A stretch of 64,000 bases of DNA, taken from Eledone cirrhosa (Eukaryota). Positions 3,084 to 54,028 of this stretch are shown here, piece by piece; the stretch's first letter is position 1; each line of letters starts with the position of its first letter. The notes beneath the pieces were generated by a model. The model was not told where the DNA came from and did not search any database. It worked only from the letters and a program-made list of their open reading frames with translations. Position numbers and translations under genes: made by a program. The DNA lies in the NCBI GenBank assembly GCA_964016885.1, contig OZ024742.1, forward strand, positions 248,930,001-248,994,000, in the 5' to 3' direction.

Positions 3084-3138
3084 ACTGCCTGAAGAGGCCA
3101 CAGCCAATGATGGTTGTCACCGAAATATATATAGCAGT
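3084..3138 (+). ncRNA. Type I hammerhead ribozyme, family 1
   Basis: ACTGC-CTGAAGA-GGCCACAGCCA(ATGA)TGGTTGTCACC-GAAA-TATATA-TA^GCAGT. Stem I ACTGC/GCAGT, intact core, palindromic minimal stem III. Confidence 0.88.
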
Positions 3139-3189: not shown

Positions 3190-3238
<49 letters not shown>

Positions 3239-3265
3239 TGGTTACGCAACACTTAGTTCACCATA

Positions 3266-3304
3266 CCGAGAACAATTGTTTCACCTTAGCGGATCCTCAG
3301 CTCG
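3266..3304 (-). ncRNA. Type I hammerhead ribozyme, family 2
   Basis: Minus strand CGAG-CTGAGGA-TCCGCTAAGGT-GAAA-CAATTG-TT^CTCGG. A truncated + strand copy starts at 3322 (inverted pair). Confidence 0.82.
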
Positions 3305-3442
3305 TAATGGACATGGTTATACCGCTAAGGTGAAACAATTGTTCTCGGTATGGTCAACTAACTGTTGTGTAACCACTTCTACCTAACTCGTCCCATGGAC
3401 TGAGTGCTCTACCACTACGGATATTACCTTCCAGTGTTCTAC

Positions 3443-12835: not shown

Positions 12836-13390
12836 GCACGTACATACATACACATATATTCATAAATACACACACACATATGCACACATACACATGTATA
12901 CACATATCTGTACACCTACAGACATATATACAAACACATCTATACATACATATATGTACACGCATCTACTCAAGTAGTTAAGTTCACATATACATTGGCG
13001 TGGGGAAGGGAGAATTAATGAAATGTTATTGTACCTCTGAGGGTTTTTCTTCACTTCAGAGATCGAATGTTTGAAAGTACGGGTGTCATCAACTATTTTT
13101 CTTTTTCAATATGAGATTTGTTAAAGAAAAGAGAGAGAGGGGGAGAATCCCGTTACTTGAAGATGGAATATCACTTTTTTGTGTTCAGTAGAGATTTGTA
13201 TTTTCTAATAAAGAATTCTTCTTTATATTTTCGGAAATGTTCGTAGTCCGACCATATCTTAAAGAAGGGGGAAAACACCAAAGTTAACAAAGAACTTACT
13301 AGATTTACCAACTCATAATATTATAATATTATAAAATTAAATCAAATTATTTAGAACTACAAGTGAAATCATTATTTTCCTTTTTTTCAA
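11648..13390. mobile_element. PLE remnants bracketed by ~105-bp inverted repeats
   Basis: 11648-11752 is the reverse complement of ~13280-13390. The minus strand near 13175-13240 encodes RKYKEEFFIRKYKSLLNTKK*, resembling a GIY-YIG C-terminus (E..FI...LN). Confidence 0.55.
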
Positions 13391-13663
13391 ATATCCCTCA
13401 CTGTACCAATGATCTCAGGCATTTTCCAATATATATAATATATATATATATATATATAAGTATGTACACGTACATACATATATGTATACAAACATACAGT
13501 AGTATGTATATGTATACATACATGCACACATATATATATATGTACGTATGGGTTTACCGAACATTTATTATAATGTTCGGTTTGTTTGTAAACAAACAGA
13601 CCGAATTAAGCCGTACAGTGTTCAGCAACCATCGTTGCCCTTTTGTTCAACACTGACAAAGGA

Positions 13664-13706
13664 ACCATGAACTAGTTTCAAGCTTATTAACTATCGTCAG
13701 CATCGT
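13664..13706 (-). ncRNA. Minimal type I hammerhead ribozyme, family 4 (tandem copy 1)
   Basis: Minus strand ACGATG-CTGACGA-TAGTTAATAAGCTT-GAAA-CTAG-TT^CATGGT. Confidence 0.83.
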
Positions 13707-14105
13707 ACACTTTCCTGTCAGATGATTGGACGCTTGAAAGTATATACTTTCCTTATGCATGTTAACGGCTGAGCAGCCTAATTTGCATATCGAGTGAGTT
13801 ACTCGGCCGGGCGCACCGAAAACGATAAATGGAAAAAATGAAACGAAATTTCATTTCTCACTCTTAGTACGGCTGTTACTTAAATATAAGTATGTACACG
13901 TACATACATATATGTATACAGACGTACAGTAGTATGTATATATATATACATACATGCACACATATATATATGTATGTATGTATGTATGTATGGGTTTACC
14001 GAACATTTATTATAATGTTCGGTTTGTTTGTAAACAAACAGCCCGAATTAAGCAGTACAGTGTTCAGCACCCATCGTTCCCCTTTTGTTCAACACTGACA
14101 AAGGA

Positions 14106-14148
14106 ACGATGAACTAGTTTCAAGCTTATTAGCTATCGTCAGCATCGT
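14106..14148 (-). ncRNA. Minimal type I hammerhead ribozyme, family 4 (tandem copy 2)
   Basis: Minus strand ACGATG-CTGACGA-TAGCT(AATA)AGCTT-GAAA-CTAG-TT^CATCGT. Perfect 6-bp stem I; ACTAGT palindromic stem III. Confidence 0.9.
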
Positions 14149-14721
14149 ATACCTTCCTGTCAGATGATTGAACGTTTGAAAGTATATACTTTCCTTATGC
14201 ATATTAACGGCTGAGCAGCCTAATTTGCATACTGTACGTCTATATACATACATGCACACGATATAAATACACATATAGCATAAATAAATATATATATATA
14301 TATATATTCATACATGCATACATACATACATACATATATACATACATACATACAGGCTGCCCCCTCGTTATCGAGTATGGCCATTGCACGATATACCATT
14401 AATTTATAATTATTAATTAATCTTGCAATGCCTGTGCGTGAAGATTTTTTTAAAGTGAGCGACAGTAGATATAACCCGAAAAGAAGAAAATATCAACATC
14501 ATCGGTAACTACTGAGCCGCAGGTTTTATGTCGGGGAATCCTAGATTCCTGAGTTGCCTTCTCCTAGAAGAATGCCCTGACAAATGTTAGGGGTCCTTCA
14601 CTCCTGTGGCTGAACCGCGTGATCGGGTATCCCGTCCGACTATTTCTATGTCCTCGCGCTACATACATACATACATACATACATACATACATACATACAT
14701 ACATACATAGACACATACCTC

Positions 14722-26015: not shown

Positions 26016-28176
26016 ACTAAAAGCGTGAGATATCGTCAGACACTTAAGATGGCGAGCCCTAGCTTTTGACGGCAAAATTACAGGCACCAGTAACACCTTC
26101 AAACTGAAATCGACAGCCTACCCTCCTAAGGTAACTGAACTCGCTCCTTTCGAAGTGGACCTTCTTGACTTAGTCGCTAACATTTCATTTCGCAAACACT
26201 CCAACACCTTCCAAACTAAACTTAGAAATGATATTAAGAAATTTAGGTCTTCTAATAACACTTTCGTTCTTTCTGACAAAACTAATAATATTTACGAAGT
26301 CGACAACACTACTTACAGCCACTTGGCACGTAACGCCATAGCCTCTAATTATAAGAAGGCTAACCCTATGGCCTACCACGACATCAATACAGAAGCCAAA
26401 GAATTTGCTGCCGCTCCTGAAAGTAGATAAGAAACTACAATGCTTAGCTAAACGTGAGGCGTTTCTATTCCTGAAGGATCACAAGGTTGACTTTGCTTCT
26501 AATCGCACGTATAGACTACTAAACCCGGCACGCACGGTAAGGGACTAGTCATAAAAACATAGTTAAGACCATTAGGATCAAGTCCAACCTGTCCAGTGGG
26601 AGAACAGCGACTCCGTCATTAAGTGGTTAAACTCATTGAACTCCTTGAACTCCAAAAAAGCGAAGTTCACGCAATTCGACATGTTAGATTTTTACCCGTT
26701 TATCTCAGAGACCCTGTTAAATAAAGCTACCACTTACACTACCGTCCATGTTTTAGACAGGGAGATCATCGCACACTGCCGGAAAACCTTCTCTTCAACA
26801 ACAGAGTATCCTGAGCAAAGAAGTCAACCACTTCAGAACTATTCGACGTCTCCATGGGCTCGTTCGACAGTGCTGACGTATGCGTTTTTGTTGGCTTATT
26901 TATTTTTTGGGTAGCTACTGTTATCCTAAGTCCTAACTCATTATTTACTTTTAATGAGTTAGGACTTAGGATAACAGTAGCAACCAACCTCTCCAGCGTA
27001 GATTTTTTAGACATTAATTTAGACCTTCGCACACATACCTTCGGACCCTTCCATAAAGTAAACGAAAAACTTCATTACATACACAAGAACTTATGCCAGC
27101 CCCTACTGTTTTTAGAAACTTCGTAAATAATATCAGTACTAGAATCTCTAATCTCTCCTCTAGTAAGGCAATATTTGACAGAGCGGCCCCCTACTATAAC
27201 ACGGCGTTAGCTAACAGCGGCTTCTCGCAACCAATTACTTACTCCCCCACTAATACCAACAGCAGTAAGAAAAGAAATGGTAACAATAGACAAACTATCT
27301 GGTTCTCTCCTCCCTTCTCACTCAACGTTAAAATTAATGCAGAAAAAAATGTTAGTCCTCTTAGATAGACACTTTCCCATAGGTCACAGATACCGCTCAA
27401 GCTTTAACAGACATAGAGTAAAAGTAGGTTACTCATGCGCTAAGAATATAAAGACCCACATCACCAACAGTCCTAAGAGCGGCACCCCACCAGGATGCTC
27501 TTGCTGAAAGCCTGAAGCTTGTCCTCTTCAACATCAATGCAACACACCTGCTGTAGTTTATGAAGCTGTGGTCACTTCCAACCGACCAATCAACCACAGA
27601 AGGTCAAATCCTATATGGATGTGGCGCAGGGCCGATTTAAGGAATGCTTCCTGAACCATCAGTCGACCTTTAGGTACCCGGACAAACGATCATCCACAGA
27701 ACTCGAGAGCCACGTATGGTCCCTCAAAAACTCAGGTATAGACTACACCATTCAATGGAAAGCTATCACTAAGTCCAAGCCATACGCAAGGGGCAATCCA
27801 TCTTGTGGACTGTGTATTGAAGAAAGGATGAATATTCCAAGGAGATTACGTAATAGCGATTAACTAAATTCAAGTAATAAAATCTTCTCACGTTGTCCAC
27901 ATGTCTGGAAATACCTCTTGCAAAGCTCCGGATTGAATAACAACAACATTCTAATTTTCTAATCAACTCGAACATTTTATTCCGGACATTCGCAGTTATC
28001 TCCCTTAGACCTTTCGCCCGTGGTTTTGTATCGCTTGGGTAAAGTGACTGTTTCTGCGCATGCGCATTCATACGGTTGTTCTTCCTGTTCCATATAACCA
28101 TTACCAGTCCGAGCTGAAGATCCGCTTAAGGCGAAACAATTGTTCTCGGTATGGTGAACCAACTGTTGTGTTACTA

Positions 28177-30558: not shown

Positions 30559-30780
30559 TTTGCAGCACAGTGTTACGACCGTTAAGGGGCGTAACTCTAT
30601 GCTGCATTACTGGTACTTTGCAGCACAGAGTTACGACCGTTAAGGGGCGTAACTCTATGCTGCATTACTGGTACTTTGCAGTACAGAGTTACGACCGTTA
30701 ACGGGCGTAACTCTATGCTGCATTACTGGTACTTTGCAGCACAGAGTTACGACCGTTAAGGGGCGTAACTCTATGCTGCA
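30559..30780. repeat. 58-bp tandem repeat x3.8, each unit a hairpin derived from SINE A
   Basis: Units start at 30559, 30617, 30675 and 30733: TTTGCAGCACAGAGTTACG-ACCGTTAAGGGG-CGTAACTCTATGCTGCA-TTACTGGTAC. Confidence 0.95.
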
Positions 30781-33044: not shown

Positions 33045-33099
33045 ATGAGATTCTACAGGACTAGAACTGTTTCATTCTTTAGAAATCATCAGGAATCTC

Positions 33100-33101
<2 letters not shown>
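33045..33101 (-). ncRNA. Solitary type I hammerhead ribozyme, family 5
   Basis: Minus strand ATGAGATTC-CTGATGA-TTTC(TAAA)GAAT-GAAA-CAG(TTCTAGTC)CTG-TA^GAATCTCAT. 9-bp stem I. A related 3' half lies at 63481-63523. Confidence 0.9.
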
Positions 33102-33251: not shown

Positions 33252-33331
<80 letters not shown>

Positions 33332-33534
33332 TATGTACACGTACATACATATATGTATACCGACGTACAGTAGTATGTATATATTTATACATACATGCAC
33401 ACATATATATATATGCACGTATGGATTCACCGAACATTTATTATAATGCTCGGTGTGTTTGTAAACAAACATCCCGTATTAAGCCGTAGTGTCTAGCAAC
33501 CACCGTTGCTCGTTTGTTCAACACTGACAAAGGA

Positions 33535-33577
33535 ACGCTGTACTAGTTTCAAGCTTGTTAGCTATCGTCAGCAACGT
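33535..33577 (-). ncRNA. Minimal type I hammerhead ribozyme, family 4 (dispersed copy)
   Basis: Minus strand ACGTTG-CTGACGA-TAGCT(AACA)AGCTT-GAAA-CTAG-TA^CAGCGT, in a ~370-bp cassette (33328-33697) between (TA)n tracts. Confidence 0.88.
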
Positions 33578-33695
33578 ATACCTTCCTGCCAGATTGTTGA
33601 ACATATATACTTACCTTATGCATATTAACGGCAGAGTAGCCCAATTTGCATATCGAGTGGGTTAATCGGCCGGGTGCACCGAAAACGATAAACGG

Positions 33696-33807
<112 letters not shown>

Positions 33808-41927: not shown

Positions 41928-42065
41928 CATAAACACGTACATAGATACATACATAGATAGATACATACATAGACACATACATAGATACATACACACACAT
42001 ATACATACATACACACAGACATACATAGACATATACTAACATATACATGCATGCATACATACATA

Positions 42066-44249
42066 CACCTAATCAACAAAACTGCGATGTCGGAGGTGCG
42101 ACAACTTAGGAGGAATATGGCTACAGTCTGGCTGGACTACAGGAAAGCTTTCGATTCTGTTCCCCACTATTGGATGATAGAGGCCCTCCAACTTTATAAA
42201 GTCCCAGACATTATTGTCAGAGCCATAGAGAGGCTGTCTTCTTCTTGGGCTACTATCCTAAGACAGAGAGGGAGGACTCTATTTTCACGGATAAAATAAA
42301 ATATCACAGGGGTATATTTCAGGGAGACAGTCTCTCTGTGATAATATTCATCTTGTCATTAAGCCCCTTGTCCTTTCTTCTCAAGAAATGTGAGGGATAC
42401 ATCATTGGCTCACAGGAGGACAGAAATACGAACCTAACCCATAATTTCTTTGTGGATGATCTGAAACTCTATGCTAAGAACATGGATGGGTTGAAGAAAA
42501 ATCTTGACCTGGTTACAAGGTTCTCAAAGAATATAGGAATGTAGTTTGGCCAAGATAAATGCTCATACATGACTGTAAAGATTGATGACAATCTAGCAAC
42601 ATTGTCATCAATGGCCTAACTGTTTCACATATATCTGATGAGGACTGCTACAGATACCTGGGGATAGATGAGAACATATCCTATAATGGTATCTGTAATA
42701 AGGAACGCGTAACCAGGGAATACTACACCCGATTAAGAAAGATTTGGTCATCGGAACTCTCTGCGCAAAACAAAACAGTGGCTCACAATGTGTTTGCTGT
42801 GCCTGTCCTAACACCAACGTTTGGAATACTCAATTGGACGATAGACAAAATCCGAGAAGTTGATGTTGGAATTCGAAAAATACTAAACAACACCGAAACT
42901 TCCACATCAACAGTGACATAGACCGCCTTTACTTGAAACGTAATCAAGGAGGCAGAAGCCTAACATCAGTCCAGACAGCATTTGAATGTCGCATCATATC
43001 CCTCTGACAACATCTACGAACCTCGAAGCGTAGGAACCCGTCCCTCGAGCAAGTCTATCTGCATGAAACAGATAAGATCATGAGAGTTGGGAAGGAACTC
43101 CTCGAGAGATATTCCCTGTGTGATAATCAAAAACTCACACCCAGGGATGTCGCTCAGCAGTATCGCAGTGAATCCATGGATGAAAAACTGCATGCTTATC
43201 AGCAAAAAATCATGCATGGATATGTTGCCAGGAAGCTCCAGAGTGAGAGTAATATAGATAAGGAAAGTAGTCTATCTTGGACCAACAACCGCTATATTGG
43301 CTCCCACTTTGAAGGATATGCTTTTGCAATCCAAGAACAGGAAATTAACACGAAATACCTGATTCACAAAAGAGATAGGGATGCAGACAAAATTCCTACA
43401 TGTGATAATAAGTGCAGACTCTGCAGAACTAACATCGAGGATATCACCCATGCCATCAGCAGCTGTACTATCTACCTATGTCCAAAGATGTCATCGCGGT
43501 ACTATCTACCTTTGAGGCATGATGTAGTGGCCAAAACACTGTACAATGCAGTCCGTAAAAAAGATAGCCCCGATAATAAACACATTAAAAGCTACAGCAA
43601 TGTGGAAGACATCCACGTATATAACATGAAAGAGTACTGGTAGAATGTTCCAGTAAAAACCCCAATAAAATGCAGGCATAACAGACCAGATATTATGATA
43701 TGGGACAGGGAGAAGAAAGCATGCACAGTAGTGGAAATTAGCTGCCCAGCAGATGCCAATAAAATATCAAAGATTAGCGAAAAGGAGAAATTGTATGCAG
43801 AACTGATGAGAAATCTGCAGATACTCCACCCTGATTACACCTTCAGATTTATTCCTGTGATTATTGGAGCACTGGGGTATTTTAGTAACTGCCTCAATAC
43901 AAATCTTGAGAAGCTAGGCTTCACAGGAACAGAAAGAACACAACCAGTTAGGAAATTACAAGTACAATCCATTAATGGAACAATACAAATATGTAAAACA
44001 TTCCAAAAATTTTGCATCTAATAACTGCATATACACATGTACAGATACAAAGCATATACACATGCACACATACAACTCAAAATATACACATCCACACATA
44101 CAATAACATCTATATCTACACATGCATGCATACATACATATCTACCTAGTTGATGTTGTGTAAATTCCAATGAGAAAGTCTTGTGTGTATGTTAGAAACC
44201 GACTCTCTCTCTATTGGTAAAACTTTGTGAAATTATAAAACCAGAAGAA
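42066..44249 (+). mobile_element. 5'-truncated R4/Dong-clade non-LTR retrotransposon (RT, CCHC, RLE endonuclease), inactivated
   Basis: WLDYRKAFDSVPH, RGIFQGDSLS, FFVDDLKLYA, CRLC...ITHAISSC, RHDVVAK, NRPDIMIWD...VEISCP, PVIIGALG. Stop at 44021, several frameshifts and stops. Both ends abut (CATA)n. Confidence 0.93.
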
Positions 44250-52196: not shown

Positions 52197-54028
52197 CTAG
52201 CAGATTTACCCGGCGATGCTCGGGGTTTGAAATTATGCTAAGAACCTGTCAAAATAAGCAGAAATCTTCAATAATTAATGCAAACGAATATTTAGTGCAC
52301 TCTTTGTACACATAAAACTATGTTGATAATGAAGGAAAACACTGAACAGGATGTAGTTATACAAATGATTAAAGACAATACACGTTGCAAATCTGTATAA
52401 AAACAGGCAGTTTTGCTAAAGTACAAAAAGTTGTAATGAAAGCAGAGTTGTATACAAACAAAAAAACAATGAGAGTAGAATAAGAGAAAATCTATTCTTT
52501 GAGAGCATCCTCTGCTGTGTATGGTTACATTTTGAACTTGTAATCCAAAATATCCTGCATGACATATTCATTGGTATGTTTTGTAATGAGTAAGGTGAAG
52601 TCAAGGCAGAGCTGTAATCATTTTTTTTGTTAACACTAAAACACTTCAGGATAGACGATATTCTTTGTTTTTCTTTTCGGAACAAACGCAAAGAGATTAT
52701 CTCGACTGCCAACTCGTGAGCAGGCAACGTAGAATTGTCCGTGCGAAAAGCAAGGTTCATCCAAGTGAATTCCAGTGACAGACAGAGTTTGACCTTGCGA
52801 CTTGTTTATGGACATCGCAAAGGCAACATGAAGGGGAAATTGGGTTCGGCGAAAGGAGAAGGGAGTATCCACGCCTGATGGAGTCAGGCTAATTTTTGTT
52901 ATTATCACATCCTCGCCTTTTCCACATCCGGATAGAATGGTAGCGTCAATACTAAGTGGAGACAGTTTTTTAACCACAAGGCGTGTACCATTGCATAGTT
53001 TTGGAGGAGTGATATTTCTCAGCAAAATAACTGGCGTTCCCTCTTTCAGAACCAATGTATTAGGAGGTAAACCAGGAGGATTTAAAGAATTTAGAAATTC
53101 AACTGGATAGTTGACCGCATCCTCTGGATCACATACAGTATCAATAGATTTATATATCCGTGGACATCCAGGAAGAATACTGTTCAGTATGTTCCTTCAT
53201 TGTCAAAAAAGTTTGATGTGTACGAATACAGCTGGAAGGATAGATAATGCCTGCCTCAAATGTGGACGAAATTACTTTTAAAATGTAAAAGCTGTAGGTC
53301 CCAATGGTTTGAATGGAAAGTCTCATAATGATTGTTCTAAAAATAAACACACCATCATAAACATTTCGTCAATTCGAGACTGCTGCGAGATTAGGCCCTT
53401 ACCGCGAAAATTAACACATAATATAGTGAAACAAGTTAAAACAACAAGTGTTTTTTAAATTTGAAAGTGCAACAAATTTTTTTTGTATCAACATGGCTTA
53501 TGAAAGTTTTAAAAATGTAAAAGTTGTAGGTTCCAATGATTTGAATGGAAAGTCTAATAACGATTGTTCTAAAAATAAATAAACCATCATCAAAATCTCG
53601 TCAATTCGAGTGAAACAAGTTAAAACAACAAGTGTTTTTTTAACTTTGAAAGTGAAACAAAGAATAAACAAGAAACAAACGATAATATTAGTGATTTATC
53701 TTCAAATGAATCTGATGTTTATATGTCTGAAATTTCGTCCGGTGATGATTGTTGTTTTAAAATTGAAAACGAACGTTTCCATATCTCACTGTTTTTATAA
53801 GGATTGTCAATAAAGTTGGTTATCTCCCTTACATCAATTTTGCTACCGATAATTTTGATATCGATTTTTTATTGCTCAACGTGAGTCGATTTTGTGATGT
53901 GACCATCTTAGTGACCTGTGCAATGTGCACAGAAAATTTGGTCAAATTCGGTTAGTAACTGTAAAAGCCTTAGGTATCCAAAGTTGTACACACACACACA
54001 CACATCCTCGCTTTGATATATATAAAGA
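52197..54028 (-). mobile_element. Non-autonomous Helitron (~1.83 kb)
   Basis: Minus strand A|TCTTTATATATATC 5' end; 3' hairpin CCCGAGCATCGCCGGG, then 8 nt, then CTAG|T. Carries a Pif1-like helicase C-terminus and an internal tandem duplication (~53280-53460 / 53510-53660). Confidence 0.88.
52636..53150 (-). pseudogene. Helitron RepHel Pif1-like helicase C-terminal fragment
   Basis: YPVEFLNSLNPPGLPP...LLRNITPPKLCNGTRL...RTQFPLHVAFAMSINKSQGQTL...FSHGQFYVACSRV...TKNIVYPEVF*. Confidence 0.93.

Follow-up and report, generated by a model that had tools for sequence, protein, structure and literature searches.

A high-copy hammerhead repeat family of Eledone cirrhosa with retrozyme features and a PLE-type insertion footprint

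Retrozymes and PLEs as the closest described systems

As described in Cervera 2020 (PMC7229834), metazoan non-LTR retrozymes are non-coding tandem units of 150-450 bp with a type I hammerhead, less than 50% GC, thousands of copies and a highly paired predicted circle; they coexist with PLEs, which are named there as their likely helper, and their target duplication, when present, exceeds 4 bp. Li, Clavereau and Pollet 2026 (bioRxiv 10.64898/2026.07.22.740005) proposed that retrozymes are non-autonomous PLE derivatives, based on co-occurrence and pLTR homology in Xenopus, with no mollusc among the species sampled in the text available, and reported that eight of nine predicted Xenopus retrozyme dimers failed to cleave in vitro. 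In the literature available to us, PLE mobilisation of animal retrozymes and circles as the templates are proposed, not demonstrated. As for the PLEs, Craig 2021 (bioRxiv 2021.04.23.441226) describes an insertion structure matching the one reported below, and by the account of Frangieh 2024 (PMC11167929) the tail of PAc is delimited by two internal RT start sites, cutting and extension take place on both target strands, the protein is a predicted dimer, and transposition in vitro is independent of the hammerhead, HHR mutants being without effect.

We analysed a 64,000-nt stretch of the genome of Eledone cirrhosa (hereafter, the window) holding a tandem hammerhead repeat, together with related loci elsewhere in the genome. 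The family agrees with the retrozymes of PMC7229834, as described there, in hammerhead type, unit size, GC content, non-coding tandem structure, copy number, predicted pairing of the circle and coexistence with PLEs. Expression and circles were demonstrated for those elements and are a prediction for the present family; conversely, the fixed 3' ends, tail, inverted arms and (TA)n targeting seen here are not described for them in the text available. In place of the stable invertebrate type reported there, this invertebrate ribozyme has the weak amphibian-type stem III. By description (PMC7229834), axolotl HHR_Amex1 has a one-pair helix III with a palindromic tetraloop and HHR_Amex2 a U.U at the base of helix II, both as here, and the axolotl and newt satellite hammerheads are expected to work as dimers, as is this one; the two weak Amex features are combined in one motif in the present family, with GUU in addition in the subfamily of the locus.

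EN+ PLEs, as far as described (Craig 2021; PMC11167929), share with the family partial tandems, 5' truncation, an inverted upstream copy, a tail on one end, microsatellite or AT-rich targets and two internal RT start sites, from which it differs in having no ORF, a tail of ~60 nt instead of 30-40 nt, and many-unit arms. A homologous pLTR exists in Xenopus (Li 2026) but none was found here. That work, in the text available, attributes arrays to local amplification; the two arms of the arrays in the present family suggest that units multiply during insertion itself. The same texts of Cervera 2020 and Li 2026 report neither two-armed tailed insertions nor edited arrays, and a literature search on inverted, tailed or edited retrozyme insertions gave nothing on point by title or opening of the abstract. 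No cephalopod retrozyme was found by literature search or in the main texts of PMC7229834 and PMC7761336, though the supplement of PMC7229834 may list one.

The retrozyme class is already known, and the locus itself is ordinary. The first-pass annotation had read it as a non-coding tandem retrozyme, and this was supported, a high-copy type I hammerhead repeat being a non-LTR retrozyme sensu Cervera and de la Pena 2020, as that term is given in the text available. Judged by its sequence features, the family would belong to the metazoan non-LTR retrozymes and is likely PLE-mobilised. We put at roughly 80% the probability that it is a high-copy, non-coding hammerhead non-LTR retrozyme, likely pasted into (TA)n by a PLE reverse transcriptase-endonuclease and probably from a one-unit RNA circle, and that the locus is a decayed insertion of 1.8 units.

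The locus and its hammerheads

The features of the locus are listed in Table 1, in which q denotes a position in the 430-nt unit, numbered in the direction of its RNA from q1 (window position 13885), the cut falling after q216.

Table 1. Features of the hammerhead repeat locus and of the separate copy (window coordinates).
Feature	Position	Strand	Remarks
Whole insertion, 1.8 units	13456..14232	-	Locus L001; RNA 3' end untailed, at 13456, abutting (TA)n; 5' end truncated, at 14232
Complete 430-nt unit, downstream in RNA sense	13456..13885	-	Differs from subfamily majority at 9 places in 221 nt
5'-truncated unit, upstream in RNA sense	13886..14232	-	4 differences from majority over 221 nt
Upstream type I hammerhead	14095..14163	-	Intact stem I; U.U at stem II base; stem III ACUAGU; GUU; predicted cut 3' of 14112
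Downstream hammerhead	13653..13721	-	G.G mismatch in stem I; predicted unfolded; nominal cut 3' of 13670
Cut-to-cut monomer, 442 nt, 36% GC	13670..14111	-	Circular fold: 2/3 of bases paired
~60-nt "tail" bounded by the two fixed 3' end sites of the family	13825..13885	-	Internal at this locus
Candidate internal promoter (putative)	13741..13788	-	ATGCAAAT 13781-13788 and AAAGTATATA 13741-13750; long hairpin in same stretch
Second ATGCAAAT	14223-14230
Two hairpins of the first-pass annotation	13556..13597	-	Starts 13556/13572 and 13580/13590
Scar at 5' junction	14232..14260	.	Short rearranged unit pieces, both orientations
Separate solo copy, GUA subfamily	33328..33697	-	Between two (TA)n runs; H17 at 33541

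Two head-to-tail copies had been annotated, and the tandem starts at 13456 and 13886 were borne out (TRF period 442); however, the second copy begins at q97, so that ~97 nt of the RNA 5' part are missing and the locus amounts to 1.8 units with one cut-to-cut monomer. The annotated spacing of 442 nt between the cleavage sites also held (H17 at 13670 and 14112); it includes a local GTAT expansion, most of the sampled family monomers measuring 415-433 nt. The tail holds an AU-rich hairpin common to a sister family termed V, with loose (TA)n ends at 13825. The extra hairpins were present where annotated, the absence of any ORF of note was confirmed on the circularised monomer (longest ATG ORF 51 aa sense, 68 aa antisense), and the third copy at 33328-33697 is predicted to have a paired stem I (0.76-0.77), with 85.5% identity over 283 nt.

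A minimal minus-strand hammerhead had been proposed for each copy. Type I cores CUGACGA (-) were indeed located at 13694-13700 and 14136-14142, the type I hammerhead with its conserved core being present in each unit, and stem III was the palindrome ACUAGU as proposed; the description as minimal was wrong, stem I comprising ~15 bp with an internal loop. The stem II loop reads AAUA or AACA, and the triplet is GUU in both motifs of the locus, GUA being the family majority. In the downstream motif, a single change puts G opposite G in stem I, so that the predicted pairing falls to 0-0.02 as compared with 0.77-0.94 for the upstream motif. Because this stem is broken, the locus is probably a decayed, dead copy, and it probably could not release a monomer by itself.

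Covariation was assessed over 17 segments, one per recurrent stem type, drawn from 139 distinct ones and including four from loci picked as stem II mutants. Eight of the 21 pairs changed on both sides and 92% of cells paired, while none of 500 shuffles scored as high and slid controls paired at 34-48%; the signal is largely one split (this family versus V, three sister-family rows) plus the subfamilies. Stem I consists of 6+3+6 pairs flanking a nearly invariant internal loop, and loop 2 is AAYA. On the strength of this long stem I with its conserved internal loop and of the conserved loop 2, the aligned motif is classed as a hammerhead of the full type, unlike the PLE hammerheads of PMC7761336, which are minimal and without loop-loop elements. 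Its weak points are the one-pair stem III and the U.U at stem II. For the ACUAGU palindrome a self-duplex of -7 kcal/mol was predicted, and thus cleavage as a dimer would be the mode to expect. A U.U or other non-pairing first stem II position recurs in several unrelated hammerhead families (L061-L110 and the window).

Rfam searches gave no hammerhead at E<=10 in 14000-14235, and none among the 150 listed of 285 matches in the whole window. The circular monomer had a predicted MFE of -131.5 kcal/mol (z -8.0), with the antisense alike (z -7.5) and a z of -3.7 for the non-microsatellite core; by folding prediction, it is highly self-paired, as in retrozymes. A hairpin blocking the hammerhead was considered as a general switch in the circle and was rejected, since stem I forms, by prediction, in the majority of intact young monomers (~0.77; 0.87 in sister family V); it is predicted to be blocked mainly in mutated copies.

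The window contains further elements. At 3089+, 41033+ and 49563+ there is another hammerhead family, whose stem II is long and whose stem III reads AUAUAU; a canonical hammerhead with a 4-bp stem III, abundant at other loci, lies at 33050-33100 (-) and 36276 (+), the former adjoining the third copy with (TA)n between them. Degraded PLE-like RT frames lie at 26029-28170 (+) and 3300 (-), followed by a hammerhead at 28114 with the palindromic stem III ACAAUUGU, and an inverted terminal fragment of the same PLE-like family as 26029-28170 lies at 3237-3420. Broken RT and restriction-like endonuclease frames of a non-LTR element were found at 41985-44021 (+), a 58-bp tandem repeat of 3.8 copies at 30559-30780, and a PIF1-like helicase fragment, which we take to be Helitron-like, at 52636-53196 (-).

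Family size, insertion ends and template

A 30-nt core pattern gave 13,302 exact matches in the 3.0 Gb genome against none for the reversed control, so that the motif is not a product of chance. The tandem units of ~420-440 nt, with 36% GC and in arrays of up to 10 units, fall in the retrozyme range of size, GC content and copy number. Subfamilies are distinguished by stem I and by a GUA or GUU triplet, with GUA at ~92% of depth in the contigs of one sample. A young subfamily with a 422-nt unit gave 1,114 exact 85-nt matches, and five of its 22 mapped insertions were without any variant over 318 nt. Sister family V, with a unit of 466-468 nt and a G-C-based stem II, is colinear with the locus family around the whole unit at 63% identity; a shared hairpin pattern had 7,771 matches, mostly V among the 100 listed. 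Its two-armed arrays reach ~32 units (C1:5,738,000-5,752,700; L142/L143) and ~20 units (C1:30,831,600-30,840,900; L144/L268). A further family, W (L206-L235, L100, L103; 1,379 exact matches), came from a profile that itself contained the ATGCAAAT motif, and has a 437-444-nt tandem hammerhead unit with a three-pair stem III, GUC, repeated octamer-bearing 33-nt blocks and two 3' ends ~36 nt apart.

Insertion ends were mapped in 94 clusters from 91 loci (85 once duplicates were removed), some of them having been selected for a best match, for multiple hits or for a mutated stem II. The outer 3' ends lay at two sites ~60 nt apart, q413-430 (67) and q46-64 (56), in 123 of 141 cases, and 107 of the 141 abutted (TA)n, as against 11 of 47 5' ends and a background of 10.6%. 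Both orientations were present in 51 of the 94 clusters. Among 40 insertions with two outward 3' ends, 28 had one tailed and one untailed end, two had both untailed and none both tailed, and ten had one end elsewhere; of the 22 young-subfamily insertions, selected for having several hits, 14 were two-armed, and every one of these had one end of each kind. The 5' ends were scattered, with no pile-up at the cut site, and sister family V showed the same insertion pattern. The copy at L147 sits within a PLE ORF and is flanked on either side by TAAATAAT; these 8 bp are the one candidate target duplication, duplications inside (TA)n being unreadable. The features of PLE insertions, namely partial tandem, 5' inversion, tail on one end and microsatellite target, are present in the family, and this footprint supports movement in the manner of a PLE, not membership of the PLEs.

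Spread or amplification of a satellite at the DNA level, by unequal crossover or gene conversion and with an incidental hammerhead, would account for the mosaic variants in a 30-monomer array of the sister family, but it is at odds with thousands of short dispersed insertions whose 3' ends are fixed and strand-specific while their 5' ends vary, and which have inverted arms and junctions with (TA)n, as well as with the copy nested in an ORF between 8-bp repeats. We consider it scarcely credible; as a mode of dispersal it is largely refuted, while it may still act on long arrays. The PLE-type footprint would also be left by an as yet unfound coding PLE of which the unit is the pseudo-LTR, most copies being its 5'-truncated ends. 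GIY-YIG PLEs are abundant in this genome, and PLE pLTRs carry palindromic-stem-III hammerheads; the coding PLEs here bear different ones, in one family ~400 nt 3' of the ORF. Yet the upstream neighbour of the unit is its own 3' end, in ORF-free arrays of up to 10 units. Comparison of 41 PLE ORF pieces of this genome with 87 family loci gave matches in 23, and inspection found a same-strand ORF running into the unit in 0 of the 87; ORF-unit attachments were likewise absent from 50 GIY-YIG loci and from 30 loci of one further PLE family. Three of the 50 GIY-YIG loci contained family copies; these had the wrong orientation, lay beyond the PLE's own 3' end and (TA)n, or were missing from other copies of the same PLE. 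An RT plus GIY-YIG ORF between pLTRs, the hallmark of autonomous EN+ PLEs, was seen with the unit at none of the sampled loci, and no PLE sharing sequence with the unit at the loci searched; in the sample of loci, the unit is thus non-coding and unattached to an RT ORF, as in retrozymes. A profile of five units, run over all loci for a related pLTR, returned family W and low-complexity matches only, and a variant-stem-II core pattern gave 408 matches, all 100 listed of which look like point mutants of the family. The first-pass annotation would have been overturned had all longer copies been pLTRs of a coding PLE; instead, arrays of up to 9-10 units were ORF-free and 0 of 87 loci PLE-attached. 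These counts come from ~130 of the family's more than 13,000 places, most of them examined with flanks of 1.5 kb, which leaves some room for a coding PLE, as does a direct junction at L188:1963 (C1 near 158,341,085), where a unit arm is fused back to back, in opposite orientation, to a 5'-truncated coding PLE fragment. That junction, an ambiguous single case, is possibly a chimeric insertion that could name the helper. On the whole, the pseudo-LTR reading appears very improbable. Two other candidate chimeric insertions that might have named the helper PLE were rejected: at L147 the repeat is nested within the PLE ORF, and at L189 (TA)n intervenes. Downstream of the insertion in the window, a C-terminal remnant of a GIY-YIG PLE ORF (13174-13269 (-), 81% to L105) lies unattached, with ~190 nt and (TA)n between.

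A linear monomer cut at q216 could yield at most ~275 nt, ending at the cut. Arms exceeded 440 nt in 67 of 140 cases, and one of 101 5' ends lay within 5 nt of the cut (q212-222), the 39 arms scored at q<=6 being excluded from this count as a filter artefact. The cut linear monomer was accordingly rejected as template, which leaves a circle or an uncut multimer. In the V insertion L144 (7+13 units, 9.2 kb), there are 18 identical monomers over both arms, and three private A>G changes recur in 20 of 20 units; none of them is seen in 13 other V insertions, and two of these 13 carry the remaining six variants of L144. In the locus family, L293 carries three A>G and one T>C, private and in the same hairpin region, in all three covering units on both arms; at L285, one arm shows two A>G in four of four units. 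A>G made up five of ten private all-unit changes versus four of 53 single-unit changes (Fisher p=0.003), the events being clustered and the repeated signal stemming from three insertions; taken against T>C alone, the private all-unit changes (5 vs 1) did not differ significantly (p=0.11). A family-wide A>G excess was not seen, the older copies having 33 vs 29 (p=0.6). Cephalopods edit double-stranded RNA heavily, and private A>G repeated in every unit of both arms would fit the copying of one edited circle.

Other arrays are heterogeneous: the 30-monomer V array has 19 distinct monomers with mosaic shared variants, a five-unit arm at L146 (C1:19,314,600-19,316,800) alternates as ABAB between two unit types differing at 13 sites, which means either a dimeric template or local duplication, and L145 has one variant in six of nine units. 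These arrays require dimeric or multimeric templates or later local rearrangement, and the homogeneity of long arrays could come from assembly. The heterogeneous and ABAB arrays, the weak ribozyme features, the existence of source arrays of 9-30 units and the normal PAc insertion of HHR mutants in vitro would all suit the same non-autonomous PLE parasite copied from an uncut linear multimer, its hammerhead being pLTR baggage or a 5' trimmer and circles, if any, by-products. Private A>G in all units of both arms would be unexpected if the units of a multimer were edited independently, and the stems are maintained by compensatory change across families only 63% identical; we regard the linear multimer as an unlikely template. 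Back-junction reads cannot discriminate circRNA, since tandem DNA gives the identical junction sequence. We lean, by a little more than even odds, towards the fuller reading in which the genome preserves a direct record of a PLE enzyme pair copying single, ADAR-edited circular ribozyme RNAs by rolling-circle reverse transcription, with two starts 60 nt apart on the two strands at a broken (TA)n and as many as 20 identical units per event; at least three families of 420-470 nt would share this route and an octamer-plus-TATA-like cassette.

Candidate promoter, proposed route and meaning

The stretch with ATGCAAAT and AAAGTATATA may, speculatively, be a candidate internal promoter. Of 133 ACUAGU-type motifs, 95 have ATGCAAAT in the 200 nt preceding the core, the commonest positions being -88, -80 and -100; among the other stem III types listed, one carries it in one of its three motifs and the remaining six lack it. 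In family W it lies ~90 nt upstream, inside the repeated 33-nt blocks, and an AAA(T)AGYATATA-like word stands ~50 nt upstream in the locus family, V and W alike. Comparable positions in the pLTRs of coding PLEs here hold CCAAT and TATA-like words. The youngest subfamily has, for the most part, ATGCATAT in place of ATGCAAAT, which weakens a strict need for the octamer, and the stretch is also an RNA stem, which counts against the promoter reading. The newt satellite 2 promoter is of snRNA type and contains an octamer; no publication on a newt octamer promoter was found in our literature search. An snRNA-type promoter like the host's own was unsupported for the family, with no octamer and no significant match in the 400 nt upstream of four U2 loci.

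In the proposed route, tandem copies would be transcribed, perhaps via a promoter inside the upstream unit. Two weak hammerheads, whose fold is backed by covariation, would pair via the ACUAGU palindrome and are predicted to excise a monomer of ~420-430 nt, which a host ligase may then close, as the coral, mussel and axolotl retrozymes suggest. A PLE enzyme would nick AT-rich DNA and begin copying at two internal positions separated by ~60 nt, one for each DNA strand, and reverse transcription would pass the cut site for one to many rounds; the pattern of ends is observed, and the enzyme is a presumed one. The two cDNAs would finally be joined back to back, or one arm lost.

The insertion ends of the family constitute a countable PLE footprint, and its young arrays a sequence test for a single circular template. 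The family also supplies exact constructs for in vitro work, namely the 422-nt young unit and the two start sites.
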